Shown: one piece after another, positions 14,320-35,938 of the stretch
Layout of the letters: each line of letters starts with the position of its first letter
Position numbering within the stretch: position 1 is the first letter of the stretch
Virus record (IMG/VR): IMGVR_UViG_3300045988_106014
Source of the DNA: a virus
Direction: 5' to 3' (one strand)
DNA length: 35,938 bases
Made by a program: the position numbers and the translations under genes
Notes under the pieces: model-generated
What the model saw: the letters and a program-made list of their open reading frames with translations, nothing else
Told to the model about the DNA's origin: nothing
Database searches by the model: none

Positions 14320-14363
14320 GTTGGTTCCCTCCGGGTGTTCCAATGGAACACCAAAACAGCGAT

Positions 14364-15129: not shown

Positions 15130-15918
15130 TCAGAGCGGCAACAACTGTTCACAGCCCAGCACCTCCAACACTTCATCCGCCAGCACGCGGAAATCGCGGG
15201 CGGCATTGCTCCAACGGCTGTACAACGACAGCGGCTTGCCCGCGTCGTTTCCGTTTTCGACTTTCTGTGTGCTTTCGCGGATAACCGTGCCCAGTAAGTC
15301 AAGGTCGGTCACATCGGCGATTTTCTCTTTTTGATCGGGGCGAAAGCGGGTAATAAGGGCGTAGGCTTTCAGCTTTGGATTTTCCTGCTGGGCCGCTTCG
15401 ATTTGCTCCCATACCTCGGCAAGACCCTTGCGGGCGTTCTTGTCCAGCGTGATCGGCACGATGGCAAGGTCTGCTGCCATAAGGGCGTTGATGCTTGCCA
15501 TGTCGATGTCCGGGGCGCAGTCCACAACAACGAATTCAAGCGCACCTTCATTTTCCGCAAGGTAGCGGCGCAGACGCTTATCGCGCCCGCTGGACGTGTC
15601 CAGCAACAGGGAAATGTTCGACTTCATAAGGCGGTAGTCGCTGGGCAGAATACGAAGATGCGGGTACGGCTTTCCGTTGGCGTTCAGGGCCGGAAGTGTA
15701 GCGTGAAGGGCGCAGGCATCAGCGGCGGTCTTGGCCGTCAGCACATCGCCCAGACCGTGGGTAAAATCGTGGATGTTGTAAAACTCGGTGCTGTTGCCCT
15801 GCTTATCGGCATCAATCAGTAGTGTCTCGCCGATGTTGGAAAGTTCGTATGCAAGGTTTGTTGCGGTGGTGGTCTTGCCGACACCGCCCTTTAAATTCAA
15901 AATGACGATGGTTTTCAC
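15130..15918 (-). CDS. parA: ParA/Soj-family ATPase
   Basis: GTG start with AAGGAG 9 nt upstream; deviant Walker A LKGGVGKTTT; 262 aa. Confidence 0.9.
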   Translation of the reverse strand: MKTIVILNLKGGVGKTTTATNLAYELSNIGETLLIDADKQGNSTEFYNIHDFTHGLGDVLTAKTAADACALHATLPALNANGKPYPHLRILPSDYRLMKSNISLLLDTSSGRDKRLRRYLAENEGALEFVVVDCAPDIDMASINALMAADLAIVPITLDKNARKGLAEVWEQIEAAQQENPKLKAYALITRFRPDQKEKIADVTDLDLLGTVIRESTQKVENGNDAGKPLSLYSRWSNAARDFRVLADEVLEVLGCEQLLPL

Positions 15919-16048: not shown

Positions 16049-17296
16049 TCACGTTTGGTAATCCTCAATAGACATTTGACCGGGTAGCTGGCCGGGTTCG
16101 TTTTCCCATTCCACGCCGATGTAGTCGAGTACGCGGCCCCATCCATACCAGTCACCATTTTCGTCACGACAAACATGGCGCATCCAGAATTCCCATTCTT
16201 TGGGGTTTGCGCTGCGCAGGCGATCAAACCGGTTTGGGCGCTGTTCCAGATGGATGCCGAAACCGCACATCGTACAGCCTGTGCGCTGCGCAAGGGTGGT
16301 GCACAGCGTTCCGTCCTTGTCTCGGACAATCTCGCCATATTCCGCCGGGATGGGAACATTCAAATCAAGGGCCAGTTGCAAAATGTCTTGCCTGCTGAAT
16401 ATGGCGAACGGTGCGCTTCGGATGGTGCTCTTACCGTAGTAATTGCACCCGTGCATCATAAGGCTTTTTTCTCTGCGTCCGCCCTCGGATGCCATCAAGC
16501 CAAGATACGGAACGCTGTTGTGCTCCTTGGCCCAATCGTCGCAAGGCTTTTCTTTGAGATAATAGCAGCAGCGTTCGGACACCTTGAACGGGGCAGCTTC
16601 ATATCCCAGGGCCGCGCCCTCTGCATCTGCACCGCCGAACTTTTCAAGCCATCTTTGGCTTAGTTCCATTCGGCTGTTTTTCTGAAATCCACCATATTCG
16701 CCTGTTTCGCCCGTAATGATTGCATGGCGAACAGTGGCGTTTTTTGGTGTCGGGTTTTGTAACAGACTGATCTTGCCTGCAATCTCTTTGCTAAGCACGG
16801 GCCAGCCCAATTCTTCAATGACTTTGGTTTTCGGTTTCAGAGGTTTCAAGAAATACATGCGGGGTACGGGCGGGCAGGCATCGTGCAGGGCCTGTTCCTG
16901 CGCTCTGGTATCTGGGTCTGTGATGGTGTCGATCTCATCCTGCGGCAGGGCCATGTGCGCGCCCAGCCATTCCCGCGCCGAGTAGGTGTTTTCCATTTCG
17001 GCGGCAATCTGCTTGTGTACAGCCTGCACGCCTTTCTGTTCTAGGGAAGAACAACTGACACAGGGAACATGTACGCCGCACATTTCAAGGAAGTAATGCA
17101 GGGTGATGGAATCCAAACCACCAACTGATACGTGACAGTTCAGGCCCATTTCGCTGCATTTGTCCTGATAACTGCGGGCGACATTTTCCGCATGGCGAAT
17201 TTTCTGTTTGTAGGTGTAGTTTTCCTGCATATAGCGGAAATTGTGAATATTGGCTTTTGCGCCGGTTTCCTGCATGATCTGCTGTACTGTTTTCAT
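16049..17296 (-). CDS. PAPS-reductase-superfamily PP-loop protein (IbrA/DndC-like)
   Basis: 415 aa; PP-loop SVGGLDS near residue 57. Confidence 0.8.
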   Translation of the reverse strand: MKTVQQIMQETGAKANIHNFRYMQENYTYKQKIRHAENVARSYQDKCSEMGLNCHVSVGGLDSITLHYFLEMCGVHVPCVSCSSLEQKGVQAVHKQIAAEMENTYSAREWLGAHMALPQDEIDTITDPDTRAQEQALHDACPPVPRMYFLKPLKPKTKVIEELGWPVLSKEIAGKISLLQNPTPKNATVRHAIITGETGEYGGFQKNSRMELSQRWLEKFGGADAEGAALGYEAAPFKVSERCCYYLKEKPCDDWAKEHNSVPYLGLMASEGGRREKSLMMHGCNYYGKSTIRSAPFAIFSRQDILQLALDLNVPIPAEYGEIVRDKDGTLCTTLAQRTGCTMCGFGIHLEQRPNRFDRLRSANPKEWEFWMRHVCRDENGDWYGWGRVLDYIGVEWENEPGQLPGQMSIEDYQT

Positions 17297-20154: not shown

Positions 20155-21296
20155 ATTGTACCAGTCGCCGACCGCGGAGTCAATAGGTTTACGCAAAAAA
20201 GATGAAATTTAATTTTGTTGCATAGCGGAAAGGCATTCTTTGAAAGCCATGTCGGCGGTTTTGTAGCCTAGGATTTTGCGGGGGAAGCTGTTCATCCATG
20301 ATTCTACTTGTCGGACGGTGTAGGATGTTACTTTGGCAAAGTTCGTCCCTTTCGGAAACTGGCGGCGAATCATGCGGTTAAGATTTTCATTTGACCCGCG
20401 TTCCCAACTGCTGTACGGATGGCAATAGTAAATATGCGTGCGATTGCCCTTGCAGGCGATTGATTTTAGCATTCCTTCAAGGTCAGAAAATTCAACGCCG
20501 TTGTCTACGGTGATAGATTTAAAGATTTCGCGGAAAGCCGCACCGAAGCGCCGTTCAAGCCGATTCAAGGCCCGGACGGTGCTTTTTGCTGTCCTGTCCT
20601 GCATCAAGACTATAATTTCCTTGCGTGTCTTACGCTCGGTCAGCACAAGCAGGCAGCGGCGCGTGCTGTTTTTTGATGAATAGACGGTGTCCATTTCCCA
20701 GTGTCCGAACTCGTCGCGGGTGTCGATACTTTCGGGGCGGTTGTCGATGATCTCGCCAACAGGCGGGCGGGATGCCTTGCGTACCTTGTGATGCTTTTTG
20801 CCACGGCGGGCTTTTTCTGGCAAATCCTCGTTTGTCAGATTCAAAAACACGCCTTTTTCAATGTAGCTGTAAATCGTTTCGGCGCATACGGATGTTTTAA
20901 ACGTGCGTCCTTCCAGCGCGGCGCAGGCCAGCGCGGCAGCGGGCGAACATTTCTTAGTCAAGATCGTATTTTCTATGTAGGCGGCAAGCTCGTGATCTTT
21001 ACCGATTTTCAATTCTGCACCCTTGGCGCGAAGATTGTCTTGATAGTACTTTTCGGCAATGTCGGGGCTGTATGCGGCCTTATATTCGTATGTCCTGTAG
21101 TCTAAACGCTGGTACTCGCCCTTTTTGATTTCGCGGTAGATGGTGCTGATATGCACGCGCAGTTTGTCCGCAATCTGACGGTAGGTATAGCCGTCTTTCA
21201 GCCATTTTTCAATACGCAGACGATCAGTGTAGGTCAGATGTTTATACGCGCGTGCCATGGTTCAAGCCTCCCGTATGTGCCCACCGGGGCAGTATA
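20155..21296 (-). mobile_element. IS30-family element (boundaries approximate; inverted repeats not resolved)
   Basis: Single DDE transposase ORF with lower GC than its flanks (spot counts 40-48% against mid-50s). Bounded by the stop of ORF 21297..21455 and the terminator/HTH gene. Confidence 0.4.
20209..21258 (-). CDS. IS30-family DDE transposase
   Basis: 349 aa; HTH ...STIYREIKKGEY; catalytic region HWEMDTV ... TVDNGVEF ... ERGSNENLNRMIRR. Confidence 0.9.
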   Translation of the reverse strand: MARAYKHLTYTDRLRIEKWLKDGYTYRQIADKLRVHISTIYREIKKGEYQRLDYRTYEYKAAYSPDIAEKYYQDNLRAKGAELKIGKDHELAAYIENTILTKKCSPAAALACAALEGRTFKTSVCAETIYSYIEKGVFLNLTNEDLPEKARRGKKHHKVRKASRPPVGEIIDNRPESIDTRDEFGHWEMDTVYSSKNSTRRCLLVLTERKTRKEIIVLMQDRTAKSTVRALNRLERRFGAAFREIFKSITVDNGVEFSDLEGMLKSIACKGNRTHIYYCHPYSSWERGSNENLNRMIRRQFPKGTNFAKVTSYTVRQVESWMNSFPRKILGYKTADMAFKECLSAMQQN

Positions 21297-22679: not shown

Positions 22680-23576
22680 TCAGCCCTCCGCCCACGCGCT
22701 GGAATAGCCAACAGACAGGCCGTGTGCTTTCTGCTGCAAGACGCTGGCCGCAGCGGTGGTCATGGGCGGGAATGTGACGGTGTAGGCCGTCGGGGTGCTG
22801 CCATTGGCAGCGGCAAGGATAGCGTCGAAGTCGCCCTTGCTCATGGGGCCGATGGTGGGGCACTGCAACGGTGTGGTGTTTTCTGCGGGTTTCGTGTCGG
22901 TGCTGGGCTTCGGGTAGCCGTTCAGGCCCTTGGCGCGCATGATGGCAGGATAGTCCACATAGGACACATCACAATCCAGCGACGCGCCAAAGCCCTTGAT
23001 GCCCAGTGCGTTGCGGCTGGAATACTGCCACAGGCCGTTTTGCACAGCATTGGTGTCCGTGGCCGTGTAGGCCGCTTCCCACTTGTCGAAGCCGGTCAGC
23101 ACAGATAGGTTCGTGTAATTTACGAAGAAATCACGCGAACAATACACTGCTGCATAATAGCCCGCCTTTTCCCACACTTCCAGCGCGGATTTGATGATGG
23201 CGGTATTGACGGCTTTGCCGCACGTTTTGTTGAACGGCTCATATTCTACATCGTAATAGATCGGATAGTCGAACTTGTGCCCGGAAATAGCCCTGATGGT
23301 CTGTTCTGCCGTGACAGCCGCCGCGTCGGCGCTCTGATCGTAGCAATAGACATAGATACCCATGGGCACGCCGTACTGCTCACAGCCCTTGATATTGCGC
23401 AGCAGGTGGCTGTCCATGTACAGACCGCCTTTGCCGTGGCGGGCAGAATAGCCAGCGCGCAGGATGGCAAAACCGGGGTTTGTTCCGCCGTTCACACGGC
23501 GCAGTTCTGCCGCCACGGTTGCCCAGTTGATTGCGCCTTGATGGTGGGAAACGTCGATTCCGTAGATTTTAGACAT
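22680..23576 (-). CDS. endolysin, GH25 muramidase with C-terminal wall-binding region
   Basis: MSKIYGIDVSHHQGAINW... GH25 signature; 298 aa. Confidence 0.85.
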   Translation of the reverse strand: MSKIYGIDVSHHQGAINWATVAAELRRVNGGTNPGFAILRAGYSARHGKGGLYMDSHLLRNIKGCEQYGVPMGIYVYCYDQSADAAAVTAEQTIRAISGHKFDYPIYYDVEYEPFNKTCGKAVNTAIIKSALEVWEKAGYYAAVYCSRDFFVNYTNLSVLTGFDKWEAAYTATDTNAVQNGLWQYSSRNALGIKGFGASLDCDVSYVDYPAIMRAKGLNGYPKPSTDTKPAENTTPLQCPTIGPMSKGDFDAILAAANGSTPTAYTVTFPPMTTAAASVLQQKAHGLSVGYSSAWAEG

Positions 23577-23739
23577 CGGTTTGTTCCTTTCTGACCGGGC
23601 GGATGCCCAGCGCGTAGTTAAATTCGAGTTCTGCCAGCGCGGCCCGCTGGTCGGCGGTGTCCACCCCTGCCGCTTCGGCAGCGGTCAGCGCTTCGTCAGC
23701 CAGATCAAGCGCGGCGCGGGCAAGGTCTGTCGGCATCAT
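23569..23739 (-). CDS. small hypothetical protein
   Basis: Start taken at ATG 23739, overlapping the XkdX-like stop (TGATGATG): MMPTDLARAALDLADEAL... Confidence 0.4.
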   Translation of the reverse strand: MMPTDLARAALDLADEALTAAEAAGVDTADQRAALAELEFNYALGIRPVRKEQTDV

Positions 23740-23861
23740 CACGGGCGTGGGCCGCAAATCTGCGTCGCCTGCAACTCTGTCAGATTACCGCTGTCAACCT
23801 GTTCCCATACCTGTGCAGCGGTGACGCGGCCAAGCCTGTACATAAGTTTCCAGAATGCCAT
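23739..23861 (-). CDS. XkdX-family small protein
   Basis: 40-aa ORF not in the track: MAFWKLMYRLGRVTAAQVWEQVDSGNLTELQATQICGPRP. Pattern and position (between the fibre genes and the lysis genes) match XkdX. Confidence 0.6.
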   Translation of the reverse strand: MAFWKLMYRLGRVTAAQVWEQVDSGNLTELQATQICGPRP

Positions 23862-23864
23862 AGG

Positions 23865-24197
23865 TTACACCCCCATCATAACGGCCAGTGTGTCATAGAT
23901 TGCGTTGATTTGTTCCTGCACAGTGGGCAGGGGTTCATCCTCTGCCCATGCGGCGGCATACGTCCACCAATCGTCAAACTTGGCGTTGATGGTATCGGCG
24001 GTTTCACCGGAACGGTCTGCACCCAACTTGCCGATGGCAGTTTCACACTGCCACAGTTTAGCATCAGGCGTTTCATCACCGGTATCAGTTTCAACCTGTT
24101 TGGCGTTTTTACGCAAATACAGCCATGTCGTGCCATCGGGCAAGGGTTCCAGCGTAACGGCAGCAGGTTTGTTGTCGAGGGATTCCGTAATAATCAT
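23865..24197 (-). CDS. XkdW-position hypothetical protein (acidic, 110 aa)
   Basis: Start at ATG 24197, overlapping the RT stop (ATGA): MIITESLDNKPAAVTLEPL... Confidence 0.5.
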   Translation of the reverse strand: MIITESLDNKPAAVTLEPLPDGTTWLYLRKNAKQVETDTGDETPDAKLWQCETAIGKLGADRSGETADTINAKFDDWWTYAAAWAEDEPLPTVQEQINAIYDTLAVMMGV

Positions 24198-25426
24198 ACG
24201 GCAAGGCTCCTTTCTTTGATCGCGGCGGCGCGCACCGCCCATTTTGCAGATTTGAATAGTTTTTGCTGGTTCAACGCTTCGGCAGCAGCGCGGGATTTTG
24301 TGCCCTTGAAATATCCGTTGTAGCTTATCAGGCGGTACGAACGGTAAAGCGGGATGAAGTGGCTGCGCTTCAAGTCTGCCCCTGCGCGCATATACTGCCG
24401 CCGTGCTCGCTTAAAAATACCCGGGCGAACGGTAGTATAGGTGCGGTGCATGACATACCCTGCCATATCCAGACCGGGGCAACCTTTGGCCGCGCCTTTC
24501 AGGTGTCGGCGGCGGTGTTCCTCTGCCGGGGATAGAAAGTCAACGCGCACCCAACTGTCCTTGATTGTCAGGTGCAGCGTGTCTTTGACCCATTTTGTAA
24601 TCTTACGGGCCGCGCTCTGGATGTCAGCCCATCGTCGGCCCATCAACACAAGATCGTCCATATAGCTGCCACTGCGCACCACAAGCGGCACGGACACACC
24701 GCGCCGGGTCTTGACATAGCCAAGGATGCGGACAAGAATATAACTTGCGACAAGATTGAACATCCATGCTTCCAGATAGCCGCCGATCAGCAAGCCGCCG
24801 TTCGGTGACATTGCCAGCAGGCAGCGCACAACGGCCAGCAGCCAAGCGGCGAGCGGAATTTCATATTGCAGAATCGCAAGCACAAGTTCCTGTTTCGTAT
24901 GCTCGTATGCGCCTTTGACATCCAGTTTTAAGGCGTGCTGGATGCCAAGACTTTTACGGCGCAGCCATCGTTCAACTTGCCGCTTTAGTGCCGTCTGGCC
25001 TTTCTTCGGGATGCTGGCGAACTGATACGGCAACAGTCTTGCGCGCAGCAGTGGCCGCAGGCCAAGATAGGCCAGATGCCCGAAACATTGATGCAGCGGG
25101 CAGCAGTCAGACAACTGCCGCAGTTTCATACTGATACCATCAATGCGCGGGAAAGTATGCACCGGGTCAAGGTCAAGATCGTTTGCACTGCCGTCCAGCG
25201 GATCATCAATGCGCTGTTCCATTTCAAGGGCAATGCCGTGAACTACTTCAAGGCGCGGCCCCATATCCGCCACGCGGGCGGCGGTCTGTAATTCTGCACG
25301 GGTAACACCTCCGTACTTTTCCGCCATAGCCAGATAATTACGACGGAACCATTTATCGTTAAAGGCTTCTAAGGCCGCTTGCTCACACAGTTCATGTGTA
25401 AGCGGCATATATCTGTTCTTTTTCAA
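24194..25426 (-). CDS. reverse transcriptase of a diversity-generating retroelement
   Basis: 410 aa; YMDD at 24653..24664; LDVKGAYEH (motif 3); LIGGYLEAWMFN (motif 4); lies directly downstream of TR. Confidence 0.9.
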   Translation of the reverse strand: MKKNRYMPLTHELCEQAALEAFNDKWFRRNYLAMAEKYGGVTRAELQTAARVADMGPRLEVVHGIALEMEQRIDDPLDGSANDLDLDPVHTFPRIDGISMKLRQLSDCCPLHQCFGHLAYLGLRPLLRARLLPYQFASIPKKGQTALKRQVERWLRRKSLGIQHALKLDVKGAYEHTKQELVLAILQYEIPLAAWLLAVVRCLLAMSPNGGLLIGGYLEAWMFNLVASYILVRILGYVKTRRGVSVPLVVRSGSYMDDLVLMGRRWADIQSAARKITKWVKDTLHLTIKDSWVRVDFLSPAEEHRRRHLKGAAKGCPGLDMAGYVMHRTYTTVRPGIFKRARRQYMRAGADLKRSHFIPLYRSYRLISYNGYFKGTKSRAAAEALNQQKLFKSAKWAVRAAAIKERSLAV

Positions 25427-25676
25427 ACCCTCAAAGCCTTTCGTTCTTGCTGATGTTCAACGACGTTCGGTTGCTGTGGCCCTTGCAGCAGGGCCGCAGT
25501 ATCTACTACTAGCCGCCACGCAGGCCCATGGCCTGCGGCCATACACACCACCCCGCGCGTATCTCTCGCATCGGCGCAGCTATATGGTGTCGGTATCACA
25601 TGATCTTAGCGGTCAAAGCCGCAGGCGCGGTACAACGCTTTTGCCCGCATTGTGCGGACTTTATTTTCATCAGCAT

Positions 25677-25819
25677 GGCGGGGCGAACCGTTCCAATTCG
25701 AGTTCGCGGGCGAATTGTTGCCATTCGCGCACGGGATGCCACACGCGCCATTGTCGTTAAGATTGCCAGAACGCCAAGGCGCGTACAGGCCCGCACTACC
25801 GGGGGAATTGAAAGCCGCC
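25677..25819 (-). repeat. DGR template repeat (TR), 143 bp
   Basis: Aligns with 25940..26082 at an offset of 263. The 12 mismatches are all T in TR on the plus strand, which is A on the transcribed strand. Confidence 0.9.
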
Positions 25820-25895
25820 GAACGCCGCTGTACCACTCCATAAGGAATATTGCTTACAGGATTATGTAGGGGCCTGCTGCCCCTCTGGGTGGCGC

Positions 25896-27629
25896 TTACG
25901 CGCTCACCCATTCACCCCGCTTTTTACCGCTTCCTGCAAGGCGGGGCGAACCGTACCAATACGAGATCGCGGGCGAATAGTTGCCATGCGCGCACGGGAG
26001 GCCACACGCGCCATGGCCGTAAAGATGGCCAGAACGCCAAGGCGCGTACAGGCCCGCACTACCGGGGGAAGCGAAAGCCGCCCGCACATAGGTGGAATCA
26101 CTGCCGCCAAATTTCACAGGGTTCATGGATTCAGCGGCAAGTTTGTTCAGTGCGCGGATATAGTTCCAACTCCATTTGTTGGCGTTGGGCAGATCGAACG
26201 AACTGGTCTTTTCATAGTTCGCCGTGATGCTGCCCGCCTGTTTCTCGGAATCGCGGCAGGAATAGACATCATAGTGCCAGTGATCGTCAACAAGACTTGC
26301 CTGCCACAGCGGGTCGAGTTGTTCGGTATAGTTGCCGATCTGCATTTCAACGCCTGCCACGCGGTAGGGGTATTTACCATTCGTCAGGTTGCCCATGCAG
26401 CCATCACTATGACCGGGCAGACATTCCGTCGTGCCGGACGGCCAAGGCATGGTAGACAGCAGCATGGTAGTGGTCGGGGAAATGGCATCCGTCAAATCCA
26501 GATTCACAATGCCGTATTCCACGCCGCCGATAACTTCGGATGTGACGCTGACGACCTTTGCCCAGTTGAAAATATTGTGGTTGTAGGACTGGTTTCTATC
26601 GGTGGTGGGGCTGGTTTCGCCGCTGCGCTCACCCAGACACACGCCGGAACCGGGCAGGATGTTTGCGGCCTGCGCCGTAGTCAGCACAACGCGCTTGACG
26701 TTCGCTTCGGCCACGGCGGGGGTATACTGGTAATTGTAGGACGTGCAGCCCTCCAACTTGCCGCTGTTGCTCTTTGTCCAGTGGCGCAGCCGCCATGCGG
26801 ACAAGGCAAACTGCTGATCACAGTCGTTCCACAGTCCTTCGTATGTGGTAGTTTTACGTGCCAGAGGGATGCCAGCGTTGGCACTGACCCAGACCATGGG
26901 CGGCTTGCCGATGCCGCTTGTCATTCCGCCCTTCGTGTTCAGACCGCCGCAGTAGGCGGGATGCCATGTCATAACGCGCATCGTGCCATCGGGGGCCACG
27001 TCACCAGCCATCGGCACATAGCCGTTGCCGGGATAGGTGCGCCAACTGTTATACATATAGCTGGCATCTTCCCATTCTTTCAGGCACAGCGCCAAAGAGA
27101 AGCAGTAGACGGGGGCGGTTTCGCCCGTGATGTCAAACTCGCGTTCACCTTCCAGCGCAAGGATGTTCATAGTGCCATCGGCAAGGCTCAAAGCATTACC
27201 GCGAATGTACCACGTCATCAAATCTTCTTCGGCCCAGTCGGTTACATCGGTGGTTGTATCGGTCACAAGCGGTGCGGCGGAACGGCCATCCGCCAGATCG
27301 TCCAGCGGCGTACCCGTGTAGTCAGAAGATACCGTGTCCAGATAGAAGCGCAGCGTGTAGGCCAGTTTGTACCCGGCTTTTGCCATCATGGCAAAGAAGC
27401 GGCACAGGCGGTCATACTTCGATGCACCGCCGGTGGCGCTCAACGGCCACCAAAGCCAAAATACTTTTGTAGTGTTCGTGCCGTCCAGCAGTGCGCCAAA
27501 ACTCGCATCAATGAATTCGGCGCTTGCGTTGCCTGCCGCAATCGCGGCCAGCAATTCCGTCTGCTGCGACATGAGATCACGCATTTCTTTGCCTGTGTCA
27601 TCGGTAAAAGGAAAACATACAGGGTTCAT
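25896..27629 (-). CDS. DGR target / variable protein, probable distal receptor-binding protein (C-type-lectin-like VR at the C-terminus)
   Basis: 577 aa. The C-terminus ...SPGSAGLYAPWRSGHLYGHGACGLPCAHGNYSPAISYWYGSPRL is encoded by VR. Follows the tail fibre genes. Confidence 0.85.
   Translation of the reverse strand: MNPVCFPFTDDTGKEMRDLMSQQTELLAAIAAGNASAEFIDASFGALLDGTNTTKVFWLWWPLSATGGASKYDRLCRFFAMMAKAGYKLAYTLRFYLDTVSSDYTGTPLDDLADGRSAAPLVTDTTTDVTDWAEEDLMTWYIRGNALSLADGTMNILALEGEREFDITGETAPVYCFSLALCLKEWEDASYMYNSWRTYPGNGYVPMAGDVAPDGTMRVMTWHPAYCGGLNTKGGMTSGIGKPPMVWVSANAGIPLARKTTTYEGLWNDCDQQFALSAWRLRHWTKSNSGKLEGCTSYNYQYTPAVAEANVKRVVLTTAQAANILPGSGVCLGERSGETSPTTDRNQSYNHNIFNWAKVVSVTSEVIGGVEYGIVNLDLTDAISPTTTMLLSTMPWPSGTTECLPGHSDGCMGNLTNGKYPYRVAGVEMQIGNYTEQLDPLWQASLVDDHWHYDVYSCRDSEKQAGSITANYEKTSSFDLPNANKWSWNYIRALNKLAAESMNPVKFGGSDSTYVRAAFASPGSAGLYAPWRSGHLYGHGACGLPCAHGNYSPAISYWYGSPRLAGSGKKRGEWVSA
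25940..26082 (-). repeat. DGR variable repeat (VR), 143 bp, inside the 3' end of ORF 25896..27629
   Basis: See TR. The invariant GC-rich 3' end CGGTTCGCCCCGCC (coding strand, 25940-25953) is IMH-like. Confidence 0.9.
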
Positions 27630-27632
27630 GCT

Positions 27633-28457
27633 TTATACCTCGCTTTCATCGTTTACGAAAAATGCAAATCTGCCGTCGCTGGTATAGCCGAAAGAATACT
27701 TTGCCGCGCCAGCATAGCCCGCCGCTTCGTCGGCGTATGTCTTGGCCTGCTGCATCAACTTGTCCGCAGCGTCCTTGCTCCGGGCGGCCTGCGTGGCCTG
27801 CTGGGCGGCGGCGTTCTGTGCTGCCTTGGCAACATCACGGGCGGCAACAGAGGTTGCCGAAGCGTCAGACGCTTCCTTCGCGCTGTCAATGATGGATTCC
27901 ACAGCTTCAAGGGCAGTGTTCTTGCCTTGCTCGACCTGCTCGGCGGCGTTCTTTACATCGGCGGTGGCATCGGCAGTGACCTTTGCGTTGTTTGCAACCT
28001 GCACGGCCATGGCCTGCAAATGCGCCACAAGATCAGCGCCGCCGATGTCCTCAACGGGGGCTTCAGCGTTTTCCTTGGCAATACCCGTGCCCATTTCGCT
28101 GTGCCATTCATGCAGTGACACGCCGCTGTCATCAACTTCGATACCGCACACATTGAAATGCAGCTTGCCTTTGCGCGCCATTGCGGCGGGGCTGGGTGTC
28201 CAGTCCATTTCAATGCAACCATCAGATGTAAGCGTGGTGATGTCGATGGGGTCGGAGAACGGCCCGCCGCCGCCATTGTTACCAACGACGCGCCAAACAA
28301 AATTTTGGGACAGGTCAAGGCCGCTGGCGGTTACATGGCCGTTGATGCGGATGTGCTTTGTTTCAACATTTTTGTCACCGGCGACACCGAACAATTCCTG
28401 CCCGGTGGGAATAGTGATTGCACGGGTCAAGACATCAATCGTGATAAGTTCTGCCAT
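27633..28457 (-). CDS. tail fibre/baseplate-associated protein with Ala/Gln-rich coiled coil (BppU-N-like N-terminus)
   Basis: 274 aa; ITIDVLTRAITIPTGQELFGVAGDKNVETKHIRI... N-terminal pattern; long AxxA coiled-coil region. Confidence 0.5.
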   Translation of the reverse strand: MAELITIDVLTRAITIPTGQELFGVAGDKNVETKHIRINGHVTASGLDLSQNFVWRVVGNNGGGGPFSDPIDITTLTSDGCIEMDWTPSPAAMARKGKLHFNVCGIEVDDSGVSLHEWHSEMGTGIAKENAEAPVEDIGGADLVAHLQAMAVQVANNAKVTADATADVKNAAEQVEQGKNTALEAVESIIDSAKEASDASATSVAARDVAKAAQNAAAQQATQAARSKDAADKLMQQAKTYADEAAGYAGAAKYSFGYTSDGRFAFFVNDESEV

Positions 28458-28471
28458 GGTTCATCCCTTTC

Positions 28472-30166
28472 TTAGTAATACAGCAGGGTGATATTTCGTA
28501 TAGGAGTGCCACCCTGTCGGTTTGCGACATATATAGTGTTTCCCACAATACGAATGCTATCTACTATGTTGCTACTTCCATCGCCGGAACCGCCGTCAAG
28601 CGACGCGACACCGACAAGCGTTCCACCTGTCAGCGTATAGTGCCACTCCATTGCGGGGTATTCGTGCGGCCAGCTTGAAACGTTCATGGTGATCGTCTTT
28701 AAGGGCTTGGCAACTACGCTGCCGCCGCCACTGTGCTTTCCGGGTGGCACCGTGATAGACCCGCCCGGCGCAAGCGTTGCGCTCCAGTCGCCGTTGTCGG
28801 CCATCTGGCCCCCTTGCTTGCTTTTGGCATCGGTGTTATAGAATGTTTTTCCCGCCAGAACATCAGCAGCGGTGGCGCTGCCGGACAGGGCAAGCGTGCC
28901 CCTCTTTTTGGTTTTGGGGTCGTTGGTGTAAAACTCTTTCCCGCTAAGAACATCGCTTGTGTCGGCGTTGCCGGACAGAATCAGCGTACCGCCAATGCGC
29001 AAGCCCTCTTTGCTGGTCATGGTGTACCCGGCCATCAATTCACCCTTGCCAGCCGTGCCGAACTCTGTCATCTTGGCTCGGGCTTCGGGGGCATTTTTAG
29101 CATCGTCAGCGTGGTAGTAGCCTTCAGGCAGATCACGGATTGCTATATAGTCGGTTCCGGCTTCCACGCTCCCGCCGTACTGGTTTTGACCACGGTCAGG
29201 CATGGTTCCTTTTTTCAGCGCTTTGTTGCCCGCATAGTACGGAACGCCCGCCAGCACTTGACCGGGCTTGGCGGTGGCCTGTGCCAGCTTTCCAAGGGAT
29301 AACCCACCGCCGCCGCTAAAATTTAGCTGGGTTCCGTCGTAAGAGAACAACACCCAACGGCCCGCAACGATTGCGTCGCCGTCCACGGCATCCGCGCCGC
29401 AGTAGGCGGGAACGTTCTTGCCGTTTACCGTCCATGTGTCGCCGCTGGCCCACGCCGCAGGGACTTTGAAGCGGCCAAAACCGCCGTGTCCTGTCAGCGC
29501 GTAGACCTTGCCGCTTTTGGTACACTTGTAAATTTGTGCAGTTACATCCACACCGCTGCCGTTCGGGTCGTACTGCGCTTTTGTCATAACTGCCGTGCCC
29601 GCGTTCAACTGGTTCAGCTCCGAACTGACGGCGGAAATCATTTCATCGACTGCCGCCTGCATGACGGATGTGCCGATGCCAGAAAACTTGCAGTAGACAT
29701 ACCCGCACAGATCAGCGTCGGCGCGGCGGTCTGTAATCATGGATGCCGTAATGGCGGTAGCGCCTGCGGGAATCCGCACATGATACAGGCACAAATCGTA
29801 TGCGTCGGCATCACGGGTGCAGGCAGGGGCAGTCGGGTTGATGGCAGGCGTACCGGGTACAACAACGGCGTGGATGTCGCGGGAATTGACATCCCGCCGC
29901 AGCATGACCGCGTCAATGCGCGCCAGCGTGCCGTCAGCATAGCCGAATGTAAGCGTTAAGGGGCTGTCGTTCTGGTAGTGGTAGCCATTTACCAGTGCGC
30001 GGCCCGCGCCCAGTGCGGCGGTCATGGCGCCTGCCGGGGCAAGCGTCAGATCATCGTTTTGGCACACGCCAGAGTGGAACAGCGCATCGGTGATCGCGGC
30101 AATGTGGGCTGTTTTGTACTTCCTGTCGCCGCCGGACGACGGGAAAAAGCCGCTCCATTCTCCCAT
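28472..30166 (-). CDS. tail fibre / host-specificity protein with three (A/T)xxDVLxGKxFY repeats
   Basis: 564 aa; N-terminus MGEWSGFFPSSGGDRKYKTAH...; repeats GQVLAGVPYYAG, SDVLSGKEFYTN, ADVLAGKTFYNT. Confidence 0.6.
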   Translation of the reverse strand: MGEWSGFFPSSGGDRKYKTAHIAAITDALFHSGVCQNDDLTLAPAGAMTAALGAGRALVNGYHYQNDSPLTLTFGYADGTLARIDAVMLRRDVNSRDIHAVVVPGTPAINPTAPACTRDADAYDLCLYHVRIPAGATAITASMITDRRADADLCGYVYCKFSGIGTSVMQAAVDEMISAVSSELNQLNAGTAVMTKAQYDPNGSGVDVTAQIYKCTKSGKVYALTGHGGFGRFKVPAAWASGDTWTVNGKNVPAYCGADAVDGDAIVAGRWVLFSYDGTQLNFSGGGGLSLGKLAQATAKPGQVLAGVPYYAGNKALKKGTMPDRGQNQYGGSVEAGTDYIAIRDLPEGYYHADDAKNAPEARAKMTEFGTAGKGELMAGYTMTSKEGLRIGGTLILSGNADTSDVLSGKEFYTNDPKTKKRGTLALSGSATAADVLAGKTFYNTDAKSKQGGQMADNGDWSATLAPGGSITVPPGKHSGGGSVVAKPLKTITMNVSSWPHEYPAMEWHYTLTGGTLVGVASLDGGSGDGSSNIVDSIRIVGNTIYVANRQGGTPIRNITLLYY

Positions 30167-31189
30167 TTAGATGTCCTCCAAATTCAAAGTTTCGGATTTT
30201 GTTTTGCCCGTCACCGGGTAGATCGTGACACTGCCTTTTTCATAGACTTCTTCAACCTCGGTAACACGTTCGTTCATGGTGATGCCAATACTGGAATCGC
30301 CTGTTGTAACGATGTCGCCCAAGTCCCAATCCTGCATATAGGCGAAGTTCTCAATGTTCACGGCAGTGCCCGTGAAAGATTTCGTTTTGATGTGGTCGAA
30401 CAGGCCCCAACCACATTGTGTTTTCAGCTCGTCCAGATAGGCCGCTTCGGTTTTGTCATCGGGCGTGATGCTGGACGCATCCACAAAGCAGACGCGCTTG
30501 CGCCCGCCGTTGGAACGGTCAATACAGGCAACCTTGCCGTCACTGCCGCGCGCATAGGCTACATTGCAGTAGTCGGATTCGTCAAAACTGTATTCCGGGT
30601 CGATGAAGTTCTGAAATTCATCGGTGAAATACACAATGTTGTTGTCGGTCTGATCGGCACTTCGGTCTGTGCCCTCGTACACTTGGAAGGTGAACTGCTG
30701 GTTTTCGGAAAATAACAGGCGGAAGCCCAGTCCGTAGGCTTTGGCAACGGCTGTCATGGCTTTCAGCGTGTTCTTGAAGTCCAGCTGAATCGTGATTTTT
30801 GCGCCGCTGGGTAGTGCCGTTTTGTCAACGACCAGTTCGGGCACGGATTCGCGGGCATCTTCGGCCAGTTGGCAAAGGATTTCGGCAGGCGTGCCCGTGA
30901 AGGATTTCGTTCCGATGACATAGGCCATCGAAAAATATATTTCAAGCATCCGCGCAAAGGCGGTGATCTCGCCGCCTTTGGTTTTGATGCCCATAATGCG
31001 GGCGGATTCGGTGCGACCTACCCTGCGCAGGATAACGCCCGCTCGGATAGCGGCAAGGTTTTCTTTGGTAGCGGGCAGATGCAGTTCAACTTCTCCGGCA
31101 GTCCAATACTGCCGCCGCCAGCGCAGGGATGTGTAGAAGTCAATGGTTCCGATAAATTCGCCGTTTTCGCGGTAGGCATACAGTTCCAT
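30167..31189 (-). CDS. Sipho_Gp37-like tail-associated (Tal-position) protein
   Basis: 340 aa; position directly after Dit; N-terminal pattern MELYAYRENGEFIGTIDFYTSLRWRR. Confidence 0.6.
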   Translation of the reverse strand: MELYAYRENGEFIGTIDFYTSLRWRRQYWTAGEVELHLPATKENLAAIRAGVILRRVGRTESARIMGIKTKGGEITAFARMLEIYFSMAYVIGTKSFTGTPAEILCQLAEDARESVPELVVDKTALPSGAKITIQLDFKNTLKAMTAVAKAYGLGFRLLFSENQQFTFQVYEGTDRSADQTDNNIVYFTDEFQNFIDPEYSFDESDYCNVAYARGSDGKVACIDRSNGGRKRVCFVDASSITPDDKTEAAYLDELKTQCGWGLFDHIKTKSFTGTAVNIENFAYMQDWDLGDIVTTGDSSIGITMNERVTEVEEVYEKGSVTIYPVTGKTKSETLNLEDI

Positions 31190-31192
31190 AGG

Positions 31193-32056
31193 CTACACCC
31201 CCCAGAATACCGGTGTGCTGGACATAACGACATCCAGATTGTCAACGCCGCTTTCCGCATCGTAGCGGAACACGTTGCTGCCGGGTTCAACCTGTAACCA
31301 CGTCGAACCGAACACCCACGTATTGTTTGCGCCCTTTTCCACGCCGCCCGATTTCAGCGTGATTCGCTTATTCTTGAATCCCGTCGTGACGGTCAGCACG
31401 TCGCCCGCGTGCATCTGGCAGTGTATTTTAAAGCCCTTTTGGCTTCGGACTTCAAACAGGCTTGGATTCGTCACCGCACCCGTTGCCATGAATTGCACGG
31501 TCAGGCCGCGCGCAACGTTGCTTGTGTTTTCAACGGCAACAGCCAAGTTGGCACGCTTTGCCGTCATTTCAAACGGTTCGTCTGGCAATTCAAGCACGTC
31601 ATCGGGAAATTCAATCAGCCCGTCCCACACAGCCATTTCAACACGGTCATCGGTAACAGCCTTGAATTTCGGGTCGGGGCACACCAAACTGATCGTGACT
31701 TTGCGTTGCTGGCCCGTGGGGTCAACATGGACAAATTCGGGTACATAGTCAATTTTGCGGGTGATGCCCTCATCGGTCACGTACAGCGTGCCCGTGGAGT
31801 CGCGCGGAAAGTAACTGTACAGTTTTTCCCGCATAGAACGGATGTTATCCTTTAGCCAGCAGTAAATTACAATGTTGCGCTTCGTGGCCGTGCTGGACTT
31901 GTAGTGTTCGCCGTCCTGATCGTTGCCTTTTTCGGTATCGACGTCAAAATCGGAACTTGTCAGGCCGTCCACATCTTCCAGCCAGAGCGGCCAGCGGAAG
32001 CCGACTGTAATTTTCTCGCCGCTGCCGTTATCACAGACAAGCAGGAAATTTCGCAC
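31193..32056 (-). CDS. distal tail protein (Dit)
   Basis: 287 aa; directly downstream of the tape measure gene. Confidence 0.7.
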   Translation of the reverse strand: MRNFLLVCDNGSGEKITVGFRWPLWLEDVDGLTSSDFDVDTEKGNDQDGEHYKSSTATKRNIVIYCWLKDNIRSMREKLYSYFPRDSTGTLYVTDEGITRKIDYVPEFVHVDPTGQQRKVTISLVCPDPKFKAVTDDRVEMAVWDGLIEFPDDVLELPDEPFEMTAKRANLAVAVENTSNVARGLTVQFMATGAVTNPSLFEVRSQKGFKIHCQMHAGDVLTVTTGFKNKRITLKSGGVEKGANNTWVFGSTWLQVEPGSNVFRYDAESGVDNLDVVMSSTPVFWGV

Positions 32057-32060
32057 TGTC

Positions 32061-35000
32061 TCACCCCTTTATTTTGGAAATCAGATCGCGGGTTGCAACA
32101 CGGGTCGCCCGTGCCGTCTCTGCGGGGGATACCGGGTCGGGGCTTGTCACATTGATGGTCTGGTTGTAGTTGATGGTTTTCGTGGTGGGCACGGGGGCCG
32201 CGCCTGCGCCTGCAAGCTGCGGGCCGTTTACCATGATCGCCATTCCTGCGGTGATGCCGTCAAGGGTCTTTTGCAAGTACGGCATGGCGCTGCGCATTGC
32301 ATCAGCGTAACCGTGGATGAAGTCCACAGGCCACTTTTCGTAATCGCGCAGCGGCCCTTCATCGGGACGGGAAAAATGCAGCAGACTGCGGATGTCATCG
32401 GCAAGGCCGCGCACATTGTCCACAACAGCGCTTGCCGCATTGGCGATGCCCTTTGCAAATCCGTTGATGAAATCCCTGCCCCATCCAAGCGCCTTTTCGG
32501 GCAGTTCCTTGATGAAGTCCACAGCCTTGTTGATGCAGCCTGTAGCAGCACTGTAGACTGTGCCGGCCATGCCCTTAATTGCATCGGCCATGCGCTGGAA
32601 CATCGTTCGGCCCAGCGTTGCCAACGTGGACGGCAGAGCGCGGAAGAAATCAAGAATGCCGTTCCAGATGTTCTGTACGGTGGTGCTGATTGTCTGGCAC
32701 AGGCTGGAAACGGTGGCAAGGAATCCATTCCACGCGGTGGTGACAGCGTTGCCGATGGCGGTCATGGTGGACGACAAGAACGTCTTGATTGCGTTCCAAA
32801 TTGCCTGTACGGCGGTGCTGATCGCATTGCACACGGTGCTGATAATCGTCAGCAGGCCGTTCCATTCTGCCTGTAAAAAGCTGACAATGGCCGACATGAC
32901 ACCGCTGATAAATGTCTGGATGCCGTTCCAGATACCGGAAATTGCTTCCGACAGTGCGGACAGGATGTTGGAAATATCACTTTTCAGCGCGTCAAAATCG
33001 CCGGTGACTAAATCGCAGATGATAAGGACAACGCCCAGCACAGCGGTCTTGATGGCGTCCCAGATGCTTGTAAAAATCTGCTGGATGCCCTCAAAAGCCG
33101 TTGTCACACCGTCGCTGACGATGTCCCACGCATTTTGAAGCGTTGTTGCAATGACGGTGACGACGGTTTCAACAATGGCTTTGATGCCGTCCCAAGCCGT
33201 GGTAAAGATTGTCTGTATTGTTGTCAAGGCAGTCTGCACGGCGGTGGTGATTCCCGTCCATGCGGCCTGCAATGTGCTGGCGATGGCAGATACGACGGTG
33301 GAAACAACGGTCTGAATCGCATTCCATGCAGTAGAAAACGCCGTTTGCAAAACAGTAAACAAATTCTGCACGGTGGTGATCGCGGTAGAAACAGCGGATT
33401 TTATAGCTTCCCACAACCCAATCCAGAAATTGCGGAACGCTTCGGATTTGTTCCAGAGGGTGACAAACCCGGCAACCAGTGCCACAATGCCCGCCACGAC
33501 CAGTACAAACGGGTGTTTGGCCAACAGGCCAAACAGCCCCGAAACAGCGCCCTTGACCTTGGCAACGGCGGAAACAATTTCGGGTGCGGCTTTCAGCGCG
33601 CCGCCGATGCTGGATGTCAGATTGCCAATAAATATCAGTACAGGCCCCAGCGCGGCAATTAGGCCGCCCACGGTCAGGATGATTTGCTGTGTGGATTCAT
33701 CCATACCGCTGAATTTGTCCACGACACCCGTCACGCCTTTGATGATTTGCGTGATGCTTGGCAGCAGCTTGTCCATCAAGTCGATCAGGGCGTTTTTGGC
33801 TTCGTTCAGCGCTTTGGCAAATTTCTGGTTGGTGGTGTCGGTGACTTTCTGGAACGCTTCATCTGTTGCCTTGCCGCAATCCTGCATCTGGGTCAGAATT
33901 TCGTTGTAGTCCGCACCGTCGTTACGGGCAAGCACCATTGCGGCAGAACCGGCTTCGACACTGCCGAACATGTCTTTCAGGGTCTTGCCGTCTGCTTCGG
34001 CGGCATCGGACAGCATGTTCAGGATGTCGGATGTGGAATCGCCCTCGGCTTTCAGATCGGCAAAGCCTTTGCCCGTCAGTTCGCGCAGGGTGGTGTCGGT
34101 GATGCTGCCGGACTTTGTAAGTTCGTTCAGCATGGATTTTAAGTAAGTGCCGGATTCTGCGGTGGCAATGCCGTTCTTGGTAAGCAGGGCGTAGGCAGAC
34201 GAAAGTTCGGTCATGTCGTAGTTGGCCGCAGCGGCCACGGGAATGACCTTGCCCATGCTGGACGCAAGTTCGTCAACGGTGGTTTTGCCCAAATTCTGCG
34301 TGGTAATCAGCAAATCGCTGATCTTGGTTGCATCCTCTGCTTTCAGCTGATAGCCATTGATGGCTGTTGTCATAACATCAACGGCTTTTGCGGCATCGGT
34401 AAAGCCGCCCTTTGCCAATTTGACCGCCGATGTGGTGAAATCAATAGCATCGGCAGCGCCCACACCGGCAGAAATAGCGCTGTACACAGCTTCGGAAAAA
34501 TCGTTGACGGAAACGCCCGTTTCATTGCTGGCGGTCATGATGTCGGCCTTGTACGCTTCAAAGTCGGCAGACGATGCGTCCAACAGGGTGCTGACCTTGG
34601 CGAAAGCATCTTCAAAGTCTGCGGCCAGCTTCAAGCCCACACCGCCAACACCTGCCACGGCGGCAGAGACAGGGGCAACGGCCTTGCCGACGGCAGATAT
34701 ACCGTCGCCCACTTTCTGCATCTTATCGCCCACAGCAGCCAGTTTTTGGGCGGCTGTGTTCGATTTATTGTAAGTGTCGGTCAGATCATCAATGCGTTGC
34801 TTTGTCTGTTCGATTTCGGCGCACAACTTGCGGTATTCCGCTTGTTCTTCTTCCGTGCCGTTCTGCATCGTCTTACTGCACTGTTCTTTTGCTTGGGTAA
34901 GTGCTGCAAGTTTGTCTTTGCTTGCGGCAATTTCCTTTGTCAAAAGTTCCTGCTTTTGGGTAAGCAGAACGGTATTGCTGGGGTCGAGTTTCAGTAGGCG

Positions 35001-35126
35001 GTTCAACTTGCCGATTTCGGTAGCCGAACTGTTTACTTTCCTGTTCAGTTCATCCAGCGCCGTGTTGAAATTTTTGGTATCGCCGCCAATCTCTACGGTG
35101 ATACCTTTAATGTTATAGGCAGGCAA
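32061..35126 (-). CDS. tail tape measure protein
   Basis: 1021 aa; TTG start with GGAAAGGGGG upstream; TP901-type core; hydrophobic central segment; Trp-periodic repeats; LHFSRPDEGPLRDYEKW near the C-terminus. Confidence 0.9.
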   Translation of the reverse strand: MPAYNIKGITVEIGGDTKNFNTALDELNRKVNSSATEIGKLNRLLKLDPSNTVLLTQKQELLTKEIAASKDKLAALTQAKEQCSKTMQNGTEEEQAEYRKLCAEIEQTKQRIDDLTDTYNKSNTAAQKLAAVGDKMQKVGDGISAVGKAVAPVSAAVAGVGGVGLKLAADFEDAFAKVSTLLDASSADFEAYKADIMTASNETGVSVNDFSEAVYSAISAGVGAADAIDFTTSAVKLAKGGFTDAAKAVDVMTTAINGYQLKAEDATKISDLLITTQNLGKTTVDELASSMGKVIPVAAAANYDMTELSSAYALLTKNGIATAESGTYLKSMLNELTKSGSITDTTLRELTGKGFADLKAEGDSTSDILNMLSDAAEADGKTLKDMFGSVEAGSAAMVLARNDGADYNEILTQMQDCGKATDEAFQKVTDTTNQKFAKALNEAKNALIDLMDKLLPSITQIIKGVTGVVDKFSGMDESTQQIILTVGGLIAALGPVLIFIGNLTSSIGGALKAAPEIVSAVAKVKGAVSGLFGLLAKHPFVLVVAGIVALVAGFVTLWNKSEAFRNFWIGLWEAIKSAVSTAITTVQNLFTVLQTAFSTAWNAIQTVVSTVVSAIASTLQAAWTGITTAVQTALTTIQTIFTTAWDGIKAIVETVVTVIATTLQNAWDIVSDGVTTAFEGIQQIFTSIWDAIKTAVLGVVLIICDLVTGDFDALKSDISNILSALSEAISGIWNGIQTFISGVMSAIVSFLQAEWNGLLTIISTVCNAISTAVQAIWNAIKTFLSSTMTAIGNAVTTAWNGFLATVSSLCQTISTTVQNIWNGILDFFRALPSTLATLGRTMFQRMADAIKGMAGTVYSAATGCINKAVDFIKELPEKALGWGRDFINGFAKGIANAASAVVDNVRGLADDIRSLLHFSRPDEGPLRDYEKWPVDFIHGYADAMRSAMPYLQKTLDGITAGMAIMVNGPQLAGAGAAPVPTTKTINYNQTINVTSPDPVSPAETARATRVATRDLISKIKG
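32649..33425 (-). repeat. about 10 tandem 22-aa Trp-anchored repeats within the tape measure (residues ~568-826)
   Basis: WNAIQ, WTGIT, WDGIK, WDIVS, WDAIK ... WNGIQ, WNGLL, WNAIK, WNGFL, WNGIL, each 22 residues apart. Confidence 0.8.
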
Positions 35127-35649: not shown

Positions 35650-35938
35650 TCACCCAAAGAATTTGTCGATGTCTGCCTGCGTCGCTTTCAGCGGCCACTT
35701 GTAGTCATCGTTTTCCCGTTCAATCGCCATGTCGTTTACCATGCCGACGGTCAGCAGATCAAGATCGCGCAGAGCAATGCCCATCTGCACGCAGCGCAGT
35801 AAAAACAGCGGCGTTGTCATTTCGCGGGTAGTTACCCTTGTTTTTTTTTCGGCTTTGCCGTCGTCAGCGTGTTCAGATTCCACAGCGTAAGGATTTCGGG
35901 CAGAACTTGATAGATGCTGAACACCTCGAAGGAATCCA
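35650..35938 (-). CDS. 3' end of gpG (stop 35832..35834) plus the -1-frame gpT extension (stop 35650..35652), giving the G-T fusion chaperone
   Basis: G frame ...ACG GCA AAG CCG AAA AAA AAA CAA GGG TAA. The -1 frame continues ...KKTRVTTREMTTPLFLLRCVQMG...DIDKFFG. Confidence 0.7.
   Translation of the reverse strand, partial: GFLRGVQHLSSSARNPYAVESEHADDGKAEKKTRVTTREMTTPLFLLRCVQMGIALRDLDLLTVGMVNDMAIERENDDYKWPLKATQADIDKFFG
35840..35938. repeat. 99-bp terminal direct repeat (identical to 1..99)
   Basis: See 1..99. Confidence 0.95.
35841..35849 (-). promoter_or_regulatory. -1 programmed ribosomal frameshift slippery run (A AAA AAA within A9; duplicate copy at 2..10)
   Basis: A9 lies 2 codons before the gpG stop. 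The overlapping ORF is in the -1 frame, as in the conserved G/GT arrangement of long-tailed phages. Confidence 0.65.

Follow-up and report, generated by a model that had tools for sequence, protein, structure and literature searches.

How diversity-generating retroelements (DGRs) work without the accessory protein Avd is a question that has stood since a survey published in 2018, and it is the question raised by the locus analyzed here. The locus lies in the IMG/VR virus record IMGVR_UViG_3300045988_106014, a stretch of 35,938 nucleotides that was analyzed as a whole and is called the window below. The present analysis indicates that the locus is almost certainly an active DGR of the Avd-less "target-TR-RT" type, in which the target gene is followed by a template repeat (TR) and then by a reverse transcriptase (RT). 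All parts of the element are on the minus strand, and its central components are the following.

25896..27629, minus strand: DGR target gene; its 577-aa product is a tail-fibre-like receptor-binding protein whose C-terminal domain is variable (phrog_17147, E 1e-164).
25940..26082, minus strand: variable repeat (VR), inside the 3' end of the target gene; the homology to TR continues to 25936.
25940..25953, minus strand: GC-rich 3' end of VR (CGGTTCGCCCCGCC), read from the sequence; a transfer boundary resembling an initiation of mutagenic homing (IMH) site.
25677..25819, minus strand: TR, non-coding, with 24 adenines.
24194..25426, minus strand: DGR reverse transcriptase, 410 aa, with a TTG start and a YMDD motif (RVT_1, E 0.0045; phrog_1423, E 5e-52).

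TR and VR are 143-nt direct repeats at an offset of 263, and they differ at exactly 12 positions, at each of which the plus strand has T in TR (that is, A on the coding minus strand) and A, G, or C in VR. Half of the TR adenines (12 of 24) are thus changed in VR, and the chance of 12 out of 12 mismatches falling on 24 of 143 sites is P = 2.8e-11. In the frame of the target, all 24 TR adenines occupy codon positions 1 or 2 and none position 3, AAY codons make up 10 of the 47 codons of TR, and the 12 nucleotide differences result in 11 amino-acid substitutions. About 14 codons separate the end of VR from the stop of the 577-aa open reading frame (ORF). This direct comparison reproduces what had been claimed from the letters of the window alone (hereafter the sequence-only reading), namely the length and offset of the repeats, the 12 mismatches confined to TR adenines, the in-frame translations with their AAY-richness and 11 changes, and the place of VR relative to the stop of ORF 25896-27629. 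The arrangement expected of a DGR is also confirmed, with VR in the 3' end of a coding target and TR non-coding and near the RT, a spacer of about 247-250 nt separating the 3' end of TR from the RT start.

The GC-rich block that had been proposed to end the homology was located at 25940-25953. The TR/VR homology runs 4 nt further, to 25673 and 25936, respectively, and this extension contains a 13th difference, A in TR at 25676 and T in VR at 25939, which is fixed in all relatives. Since it is found in every VR, this difference lies outside the transferred segment and marks the end of the transfer rather than mutagenesis. From the aligned repeats, the 25676/25939 pair thus appears to be an IMH/IMH*-type marker.

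The same bias recurs in related loci. A target-based scan of IMG/VR gave 23 loci, of which 14 contain both repeats in full; 80 loci (RT identity 37-100%) came from an RT-based scan, 63 of them with the same VR-TR-RT layout; and 23 loci were found in bacterial genomes, 21 of which were used for the mismatch counts. TR adenines account for every mismatch in the window and the 14 target-based loci (221/221), for 911 of 942 in the 63 RT-based loci, and for 319 of 339 in the 21 bacterial ones; when the window and the more than 80 related loci are pooled, the figure is 1451 of 1502 (97%). Across the window and the 14 target-based loci the TRs are almost identical and every VR is different. The rare non-A changes in TR (loci L003, L005, and L007/9/10) are repeated in the cognate VR, which points to copying from TR to VR.

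The evidence of activity consists of differences between assemblies, not of reads. The target gene of locus L004 has no differences from that of the window at the 1591 positions outside VR, and 17 at the 143 positions inside it, all 17 at TR adenines. To differ only at 17 such sites across 1734 nt, the two genes need very recent activity of the element. Clustered at 90% identity, the target falls into a group of 3111 distinct sequences, and among the full-length members listed every one differs at VR codons. These sequence comparisons argue for recent diversification in the window phage's own lineage, and the check that the sequence-only reading had put forward, namely VR heterogeneity limited to TR-adenine sites, comes out positive in the assembled relatives (17/17 in L004). 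The same cluster (P0121) also takes in proteins of 272-279 aa that are the product of the gene upstream of the target (27633-28457), presumably because some assemblies contain read-through or fused gene calls that link the two.

The YMDD-containing RT that had been seen to follow TR corresponds to ORF 24194-25426. The ORF is intact but divergent, and its similarity to known RTs is weak yet specific: a profile of 18 homologues searched against the PDB gave as its sole match a 328-aa RT (8ub7-8ube, E 8e-7). The 8ub7 chain is read here as the RT of Bordetella phage BPP-1 (bRT), because its aligned IGSLTSQ corresponds to residues I181-Q187 of that protein (10.1101/2023.10.23.563531). Residues D169, D257, D258, R103, and I214 do not vary among the 18 homologues, and in the RT family the same holds for the catalytic Asp residues (YMDD and the Asp of motif A) and for the positions equivalent to R74 and I181 of bRT. 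The ORF is 98-100% identical in many independent contigs, and the whole family is tied to A-biased TR/VR pairs. On this basis, the RT appears to belong to the DGR clade. NCBIfam searches on the locus gave nothing useful.

The target had been described as a distal tail protein (Dit), and this part of the sequence-only reading has to be abandoned: the Dit homologue is another gene, at 31193-32056, and the target is a tail-fibre-like protein of PHROG 17147. Pfam gave no match to it, including none to FGE-sulfatase or DUF1566. An AlphaFold2 model (pLDDT 93.7, built on an alignment of 42 diverse homologues) was compared with the PDB using Foldseek, and the only significant matches were chains of TaqVP (5vf4, E 9e-6, probability 1.0), with Mtd at rank 5 in the match list. 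The matches of the model in BFVD are gut-phage tail-fibre and tail-collar-fibre proteins, and also TvpA-like and FGE-like entries. The variable domain is thus predicted to be of the C-type-lectin-like fold class, the fold that had been expected.

Homologues of the target often have long N-terminal additions, among them BppU_N, and such variable additions fit a modular receptor-binding protein. Many relatives (proteins P0134-P0240; L138:5001-7415) are 804 aa long and consist of the same module of ~540 aa and an N-terminal BppU_N baseplate domain; these fused relatives have downstream of them the same RT and the same small protein, X, that are found in the window. The 274-aa protein encoded upstream of the target in the window has no similarity to the BppU_N part of the fused relatives.

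The flanks of TR are better conserved than the proteins, and a number of RNA and hairpin elements can be recognized between VR and the RT start.

25887..25909, minus strand: hairpin 1 (GGGTGAGCGC-GTAA-GCGCCACCC), after the target stop codon; fold z-score -3.75.
25868..25884, minus strand: hairpin 2 (AGGGGC-AGCAG-GCCCCT), between VR and TR; conserved across the whole family.
25826..25836, minus strand: 5' arm of duplex S1 (GTGGTACAGCG), shortly before TR; its pairing partner is 25627-25637.
25668..25675, minus strand: 5' arm of helix P1 (TGCTGATG), directly 3' of TR; complementary to 25448-25455.
25645..25657, minus strand: hairpin P2, just downstream of TR; its stem sequences differ among relatives.
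25627..25637, minus strand: 3' arm of duplex S1 (CGTTGTACCGC), in the TR-RT spacer.
25586..25622, minus strand: stem-loop (25609-25622) followed by a highly conserved A-rich block, CTAAGATCATGTGATACCGACACC, after S1; from the alignment.
25444..25540, minus strand: spacer RNA core with helices A, B, and C and invariant GUAGUA and AACCGAA; holds the 3' arm of P1 (25448-25455).

S1 is an 11-bp duplex that brackets TR. Its cells in the alignment are paired in 96% of cases, with 51 compensatory cells in 18 lineages, and its covariation score is 0.81, compared to at most 0.23 in slid controls; because S1 emerged from a scan, the shuffle control does not test it independently. In the region of the A-rich block, AATC is invariant and the adjoining stem varies with compensation. 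P1, a helix between the 8 nt that follow TR and 8 nt ahead of the RT start, exists in at least seven compensating sequence versions among the relatives; the search for the longest helix with shuffles was too noisy to serve as a statistical test. The spacer core has 84.9% of its cells paired (32-49% when slid) and double changes in 19 of its 22 pairs. In 37 of 39 sources, a covariance model of this core, R1, has a single match in each locus, immediately ahead of the RT; in locus L113, which has lost the RT, it has none. With RNAalifold, the raw MAFFT alignment gave back only part of the structure, and an all-against-all column scan gave only helix B because of register shifts. A search of positions 24000-26200 against Rfam found no family.

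These elements recall the RNA of the BPP-1 DGR, in which a "cPRT Stop" duplex between upstream and downstream segments, a stem-loop, and adenosines flank the template:primer duplex; the study that described it surveyed Avd-containing DGRs (10.1101/2023.10.23.563531). The window has the same succession, with a long-range duplex that brackets TR followed by a stem-loop and an A-rich block, and P2 is in the position of the stem-loop found downstream of TR in Avd-type DGRs (10.1101/2023.10.23.563531). Candidates for the template-primer duplex are P1 (25668-25675/25448-25455) or a short GC pairing of the 3' arm of P2 with the GC block of TR. By analogy, the layout of the TR flanks may be functionally equivalent to that of the BPP-1 DGR RNA. 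A covariation-supported DGR RNA architecture with a cPRT-Stop-like duplex in an Avd-less family is a modestly new point.

The two hairpins that follow VR lie 30-70 nt downstream of the GC block, one being kept by compensation and the other by sequence. The pairing of hairpin 1 is preserved despite changes in its stem sequence in L011, L024, L027, and L091, and we consider it a candidate target-recognition hairpin or cruciform. The pair may correspond to the target-recognition hairpin of BPP-1, or the hairpins could be terminators; a scan for promoters and terminators found nothing above the shuffled expectation.

The locus combines A-only TR/VR differences, a VR in the 3' coding end of its target, intact catalytic motifs in the RT, heterogeneity of VR, and a modelled target fold that matches a DGR variable protein. 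A mechanism can be proposed around the observed repeat anatomy, A-specificity, TR-to-VR flow, recent diversification of the lineage, target fold class, and RNA helices. A transcript of roughly 25836 to 25444, comprising TR and its flanks, would fold such that the segment upstream of TR pairs with the spacer (S1), with the spacer itself forming the conserved multi-helix core. The RT, encoded immediately downstream, would copy TR into cDNA, beginning within its GC-rich 3' end or adjacent to it, and would misincorporate opposite TR adenines. The cDNA would then take the place of VR in the 3'-terminal part of the tail-fibre-like gene, and up to 12 codons, 10 of them AAY, would be randomized in the C-type-lectin-like domain, retargeting receptor binding. 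In this scheme, cis-priming from the spacer and the exact initiation site are suggested by analogy with BPP-1, as are the role of the post-VR hairpins and the likely pay-off, host-range switching.

Several points weigh against the assignment as an active DGR. First, Avd, which is essential in the BPP-1 paradigm, was not found in any of the scanned ORFs of the window: the 40 ORFs of the complete genome gave no Avd-like Pfam match, although Avd genes are poorly conserved and a very divergent one is possible. Second, the RT scores under the Pfam and NCBIfam cut-offs. Third, it has LIGGYLEAW where bRT has IGSLTSQ, with the dNTP-contacting Gln187 replaced by Trp. The motif 4 signature of DGR RTs is [I/L]GxxxSQ (I181...S186 Q187 in bRT), and the present family has LIGGY[LM][ED][AS]W instead, in which the Ile and Gly are kept, some members have Ser, and Trp invariably replaces Gln. 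The deviation concerns a single motif and not function, and an RT clade with the Q187-to-W change is a modestly new observation. Finally, activity is deduced from differences between assemblies rather than from the reads of a single population, and the priming site and the integration mechanism stand as proposals modelled on BPP-1.

The first of these points also modifies the earlier assignment to the BPP-1 paradigm. The hallmarks of adenine-directed mutagenic retrohoming are present, but without Avd the layout departs from that of BPP-1 in the strict sense. An architecture of the BPP-1 type (architecture B), with avd in the cassette, was not found; what was found corresponds to architecture A1, the type that lacks avd, HRDC, MSL, and CH1, with an adjacent upstream target, a core of TR and RT, and no accessory domains according to Pfam. 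The Avd-less "target-TR-RT" architecture was already known, and DGRs without accessory genes made up 29% in the 2018 survey (PMC5758913). It is possible, if somewhat doubtful, that the RT clade carries out mutagenic retrohoming without an Avd-like partner, the positioning of template and primer by Avd being taken over by an N-terminal extension of ~100 aa in the RT or by the translationally coupled X, on an RNA in which a cPRT-Stop-like duplex is preserved. X is encoded directly after the RT and is followed by a still smaller ORF.

23865..24197, minus strand: protein X, 110 aa, acidic (pI 4.1); its start overlaps the RT stop (ATGA).
23739..23861, minus strand: XkdX-like ORF, 40 aa (MAFWKLMYRLGRVTAAQVWEQVDSGNLTELQATQICGPRP); Phage_XkdX E 0.0017, below the Pfam cut-off; part of the context, not of the DGR.

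X is 84-149 aa long across the relatives, with a pI of 4.1-4.8. A profile search of the PDB, Pfam (13 members), and Foldseek on a model of pLDDT 68 gave only noise for it, and tblastn found no counterpart in phages. The 40-aa ORF is kept after X in the relatives, where all copies have a C-terminal ICGPRP motif and weak matches to Phage_XkdX.

The order of these genes varies in a few loci. L113:3189-5470 is a DGR-loss variant with a target homologue (47% identity) followed by X and the XkdX-like ORF; between the target homologue and X only a C-terminal remnant of the RT (residues 343-395) is left, and TR is gone. In L134 and L135 (2373-4790), which are rumen MAG prophages, the order is target(VR)-X-XkdX-like-TR-RT instead of target-TR-RT-X, and the mismatches are still A-only. 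In L014/L063 (IMGVR_UViG_3300007360_000164), the RT and X read as a single 535-aa ORF, which is either a natural fusion or the result of a 1-nt assembly error at the ATGA junction.

The avd product is a basic protein of about 110-130 aa that forms a four-helix-bundle pentamer. X, the only small protein adjacent to the cassette, is acidic with a beta+alpha model; being acidic and not all-helical, it was rejected as an analogue of Avd. A different matter is whether X could be a dedicated accessory factor of this DGR lineage that stands in for Avd, similar to the acidic CH1 protein. The overlap of its start with the RT stop codon speaks in favor of such a role, as does its association with the RT: of 77 IMG/VR loci, with RT identities as low as 37%, 76 have X next to the RT, it is present in all 23 genome loci, the RT-X pair is found beside different neighbours, and in one contig RT and X read as a fused ORF. 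X even lies between VR and TR in L134 and L135, where BPP-1 has avd, but this order can equally be read as an insertion of TR-RT after the X-XkdX pair. CH1 is likewise small, acidic, and motif-free (PMC5758913).

X, however, always travels with the XkdX-like ORF (40-54 aa), between the fibre gene and the lysis genes, and in L113 the pair is kept although RT and TR are deleted. Its acidic character and beta+alpha model also contrast with the basic, helical Avd, and it has no nucleic-acid-binding signature. The accessory role was downgraded because L113 keeps X without the RT and because the XkdX-like partner was found, and we now regard it as rather unlikely. In Firmicutes phages, the stretch between fibre and lysis genes is the classic place of the XkdW/XkdX pair. 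Most simply, X and the XkdX-like ORF can be read as the genes that these phages usually have at the fibre-to-lysis junction, with TR-RT placed beside them; X is then probably a phage gene in the XkdW position and not part of the DGR.

A less favorable alternative is that the DGR is a relic, in which a diverged VR was left behind by a cassette that no longer works in this phage. The divergence of the RT to below the Pfam cut-off, the lack of a canonical SQ in motif 4, and the lack of Avd would be compatible with decay, which does occur in the family, as in L113 with the loss of TR and most of the RT. It is nevertheless very improbable here, as the RT has an intact ORF with invariant catalytic residues and TR is conserved, while L004 and the window differ at 17 TR-adenine sites of VR only. 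That the repeat is an ordinary duplication of the 3' end of the gene or a gene-conversion cassette diverged by normal mutation, beside an unrelated retron-like or group II-like RT, can practically be dismissed: nothing specific speaks for it, the RT having only a weak match to a group II RT/maturase model (E 0.0028), and it is opposed by the A-only asymmetry (P about 3e-11, seen again in more than 80 loci), the absence of TR adenines from third codon positions, the one-way copying from TR to VR, and the lack of intron RNA or maturase features and of any Rfam match.

The element is carried by a phage whose genome is complete in the window. The first 99 nt (1-99) are identical to the last 99 nt (35840-35938), which indicates a circular assembly of about 35,839 bp. 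The source is a siphovirus with a complete genome of ~35.8 kb that encodes terminase, portal, protease, and ParA/ParB, and the DGR target is the last gene of its tail module. The neighbouring genes are listed below.

32061-35126, minus strand: tape measure protein.
31193-32056, minus strand: Dit (Pfam Sipho_tail and SPP1_Dit).
30167-31189, minus strand: Sipho_Gp37 tail protein.
28472-30166, minus strand: 564-aa structural protein.
27633-28457, minus strand: 274-aa structural protein.
22680-23576, minus strand: GH25 endolysin.

Megablast found no match to the genome or the locus among 50,697 GenBank phage records, and the best RT match in deposited phages has 37% identity, with nothing beyond it. 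As far as these sequence searches reach, no deposited phage appears to be close to the window phage. Its nearest relatives in genomes are prophages of Faecalibacterium prausnitzii and uncultured Faecalibacterium (RT identity 72-74%), followed by those in Subdoligranulum, Oscillospiraceae, and other Clostridia; the window phage is classed here as a gut Clostridia phage, probably with a Faecalibacterium or Oscillospiraceae host.

Partition genes are present, ParB-like at 12877-14343 and ParA-like at 15130-15918 (both minus strand), and among the scanned window ORFs no integrase was seen; the prophage may persist as a plasmid. The genome-borne relatives adjoin serine or tyrosine recombinases. A transposase gene (20209-21258, minus strand; phrog_4646, E 1e-124) is situated in the stretch of lowest GC in the window (45-49%, compared to ~54%), which suggests a recently acquired IS element. 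Two overlapping ORFs on the plus strand (1308-1820 and 1781-2233) match successive parts of the DnaQ-like exonuclease subunit phrog_192 and may be a frameshifted or split gene; they sit between the tail terminator and Neck1 genes, on the strand opposite to the structural genes. A 415-aa protein (16049-17296, minus strand) that adjoins the replication genes matches the PAPS-reductase-like phrog_424.

The discovery of the element is in itself unsurprising: DGRs on tail-fibre genes are frequent among gut phages, Faecalibacterium phages included, and the Avd-less variant was already known. What the window offers is a clean, well-populated case of a DGR that lacks Avd, set in a complete phage genome, together with a related prophage in a cultured host, Faecalibacterium prausnitzii strain 2 (NZ_CP186691.1), which is a modestly new point. 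The hundreds of natural variants in the family and the strong covariation make it a practical system for the mechanism of Avd-independent DGRs, and it could be of use for studying how phages of an important gut commensal retarget their receptor binding.

Among known systems, architecture A1 of Wu et al. (2018) has the same target-TR-RT order and no recognizable accessory gene (PMC5758913). The DGRs of F. prausnitzii phages described by Cornuault et al. (2018), which are likewise from gut Firmicutes phages, share the Avd-less state: 10 of the 18 phages carry a DGR, with Avd in only two (PMC5883640). The window RT is only about 23% identical to that of one of them, FP_Epona. The CH1 proteins of Lineage 3a Bacteroides DGRs resemble X in being small, acidic (pI about 4.7), motif-free, and confined to Avd-less DGRs (PMC5758913); they are 160-169 aa long compared to the 84-149 aa of X, and the likeness drawn here is one of description.

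The closest known variable proteins are those with a C-type-lectin fold, TaqVP, Mtd, and TvpA. TaqVP, the DGR variable protein of Thermus aquaticus (5vf4), is the best structural match to the target, and its variable residues are likewise C-terminal. The sequence identity is ~10%, and at 577 aa the window protein exceeds TaqVP in size; it additionally has a helical region at the N-terminus and further beta domains typical of phage fibres.

The BPP-1 DGR (mtd-avd-TR-brt) differs from the window in having an avd gene, which the window lacks, and in the RT, which has 328 aa compared to 410 aa in the window, where ~100 residues are added at the N-terminus; the identity between the two is barely detectable (E 0.004 with a single sequence, 8e-7 with the profile). 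In addition, the equivalents of IMH and IMH* in the window share almost no sequence past the GC block. The two elements nevertheless have in common the A-to-N transfer from TR to VR, aimed at the variable domain at the C-terminus of a receptor-binding tail-fibre protein, a GC-rich 3' boundary beyond which TR and VR diverge (IMH/IMH*-like), a hairpin downstream of VR, and a long-range RNA duplex around TR that is followed by a stem-loop and adenosines and can be compared with the cPRT Stop of BPP-1.

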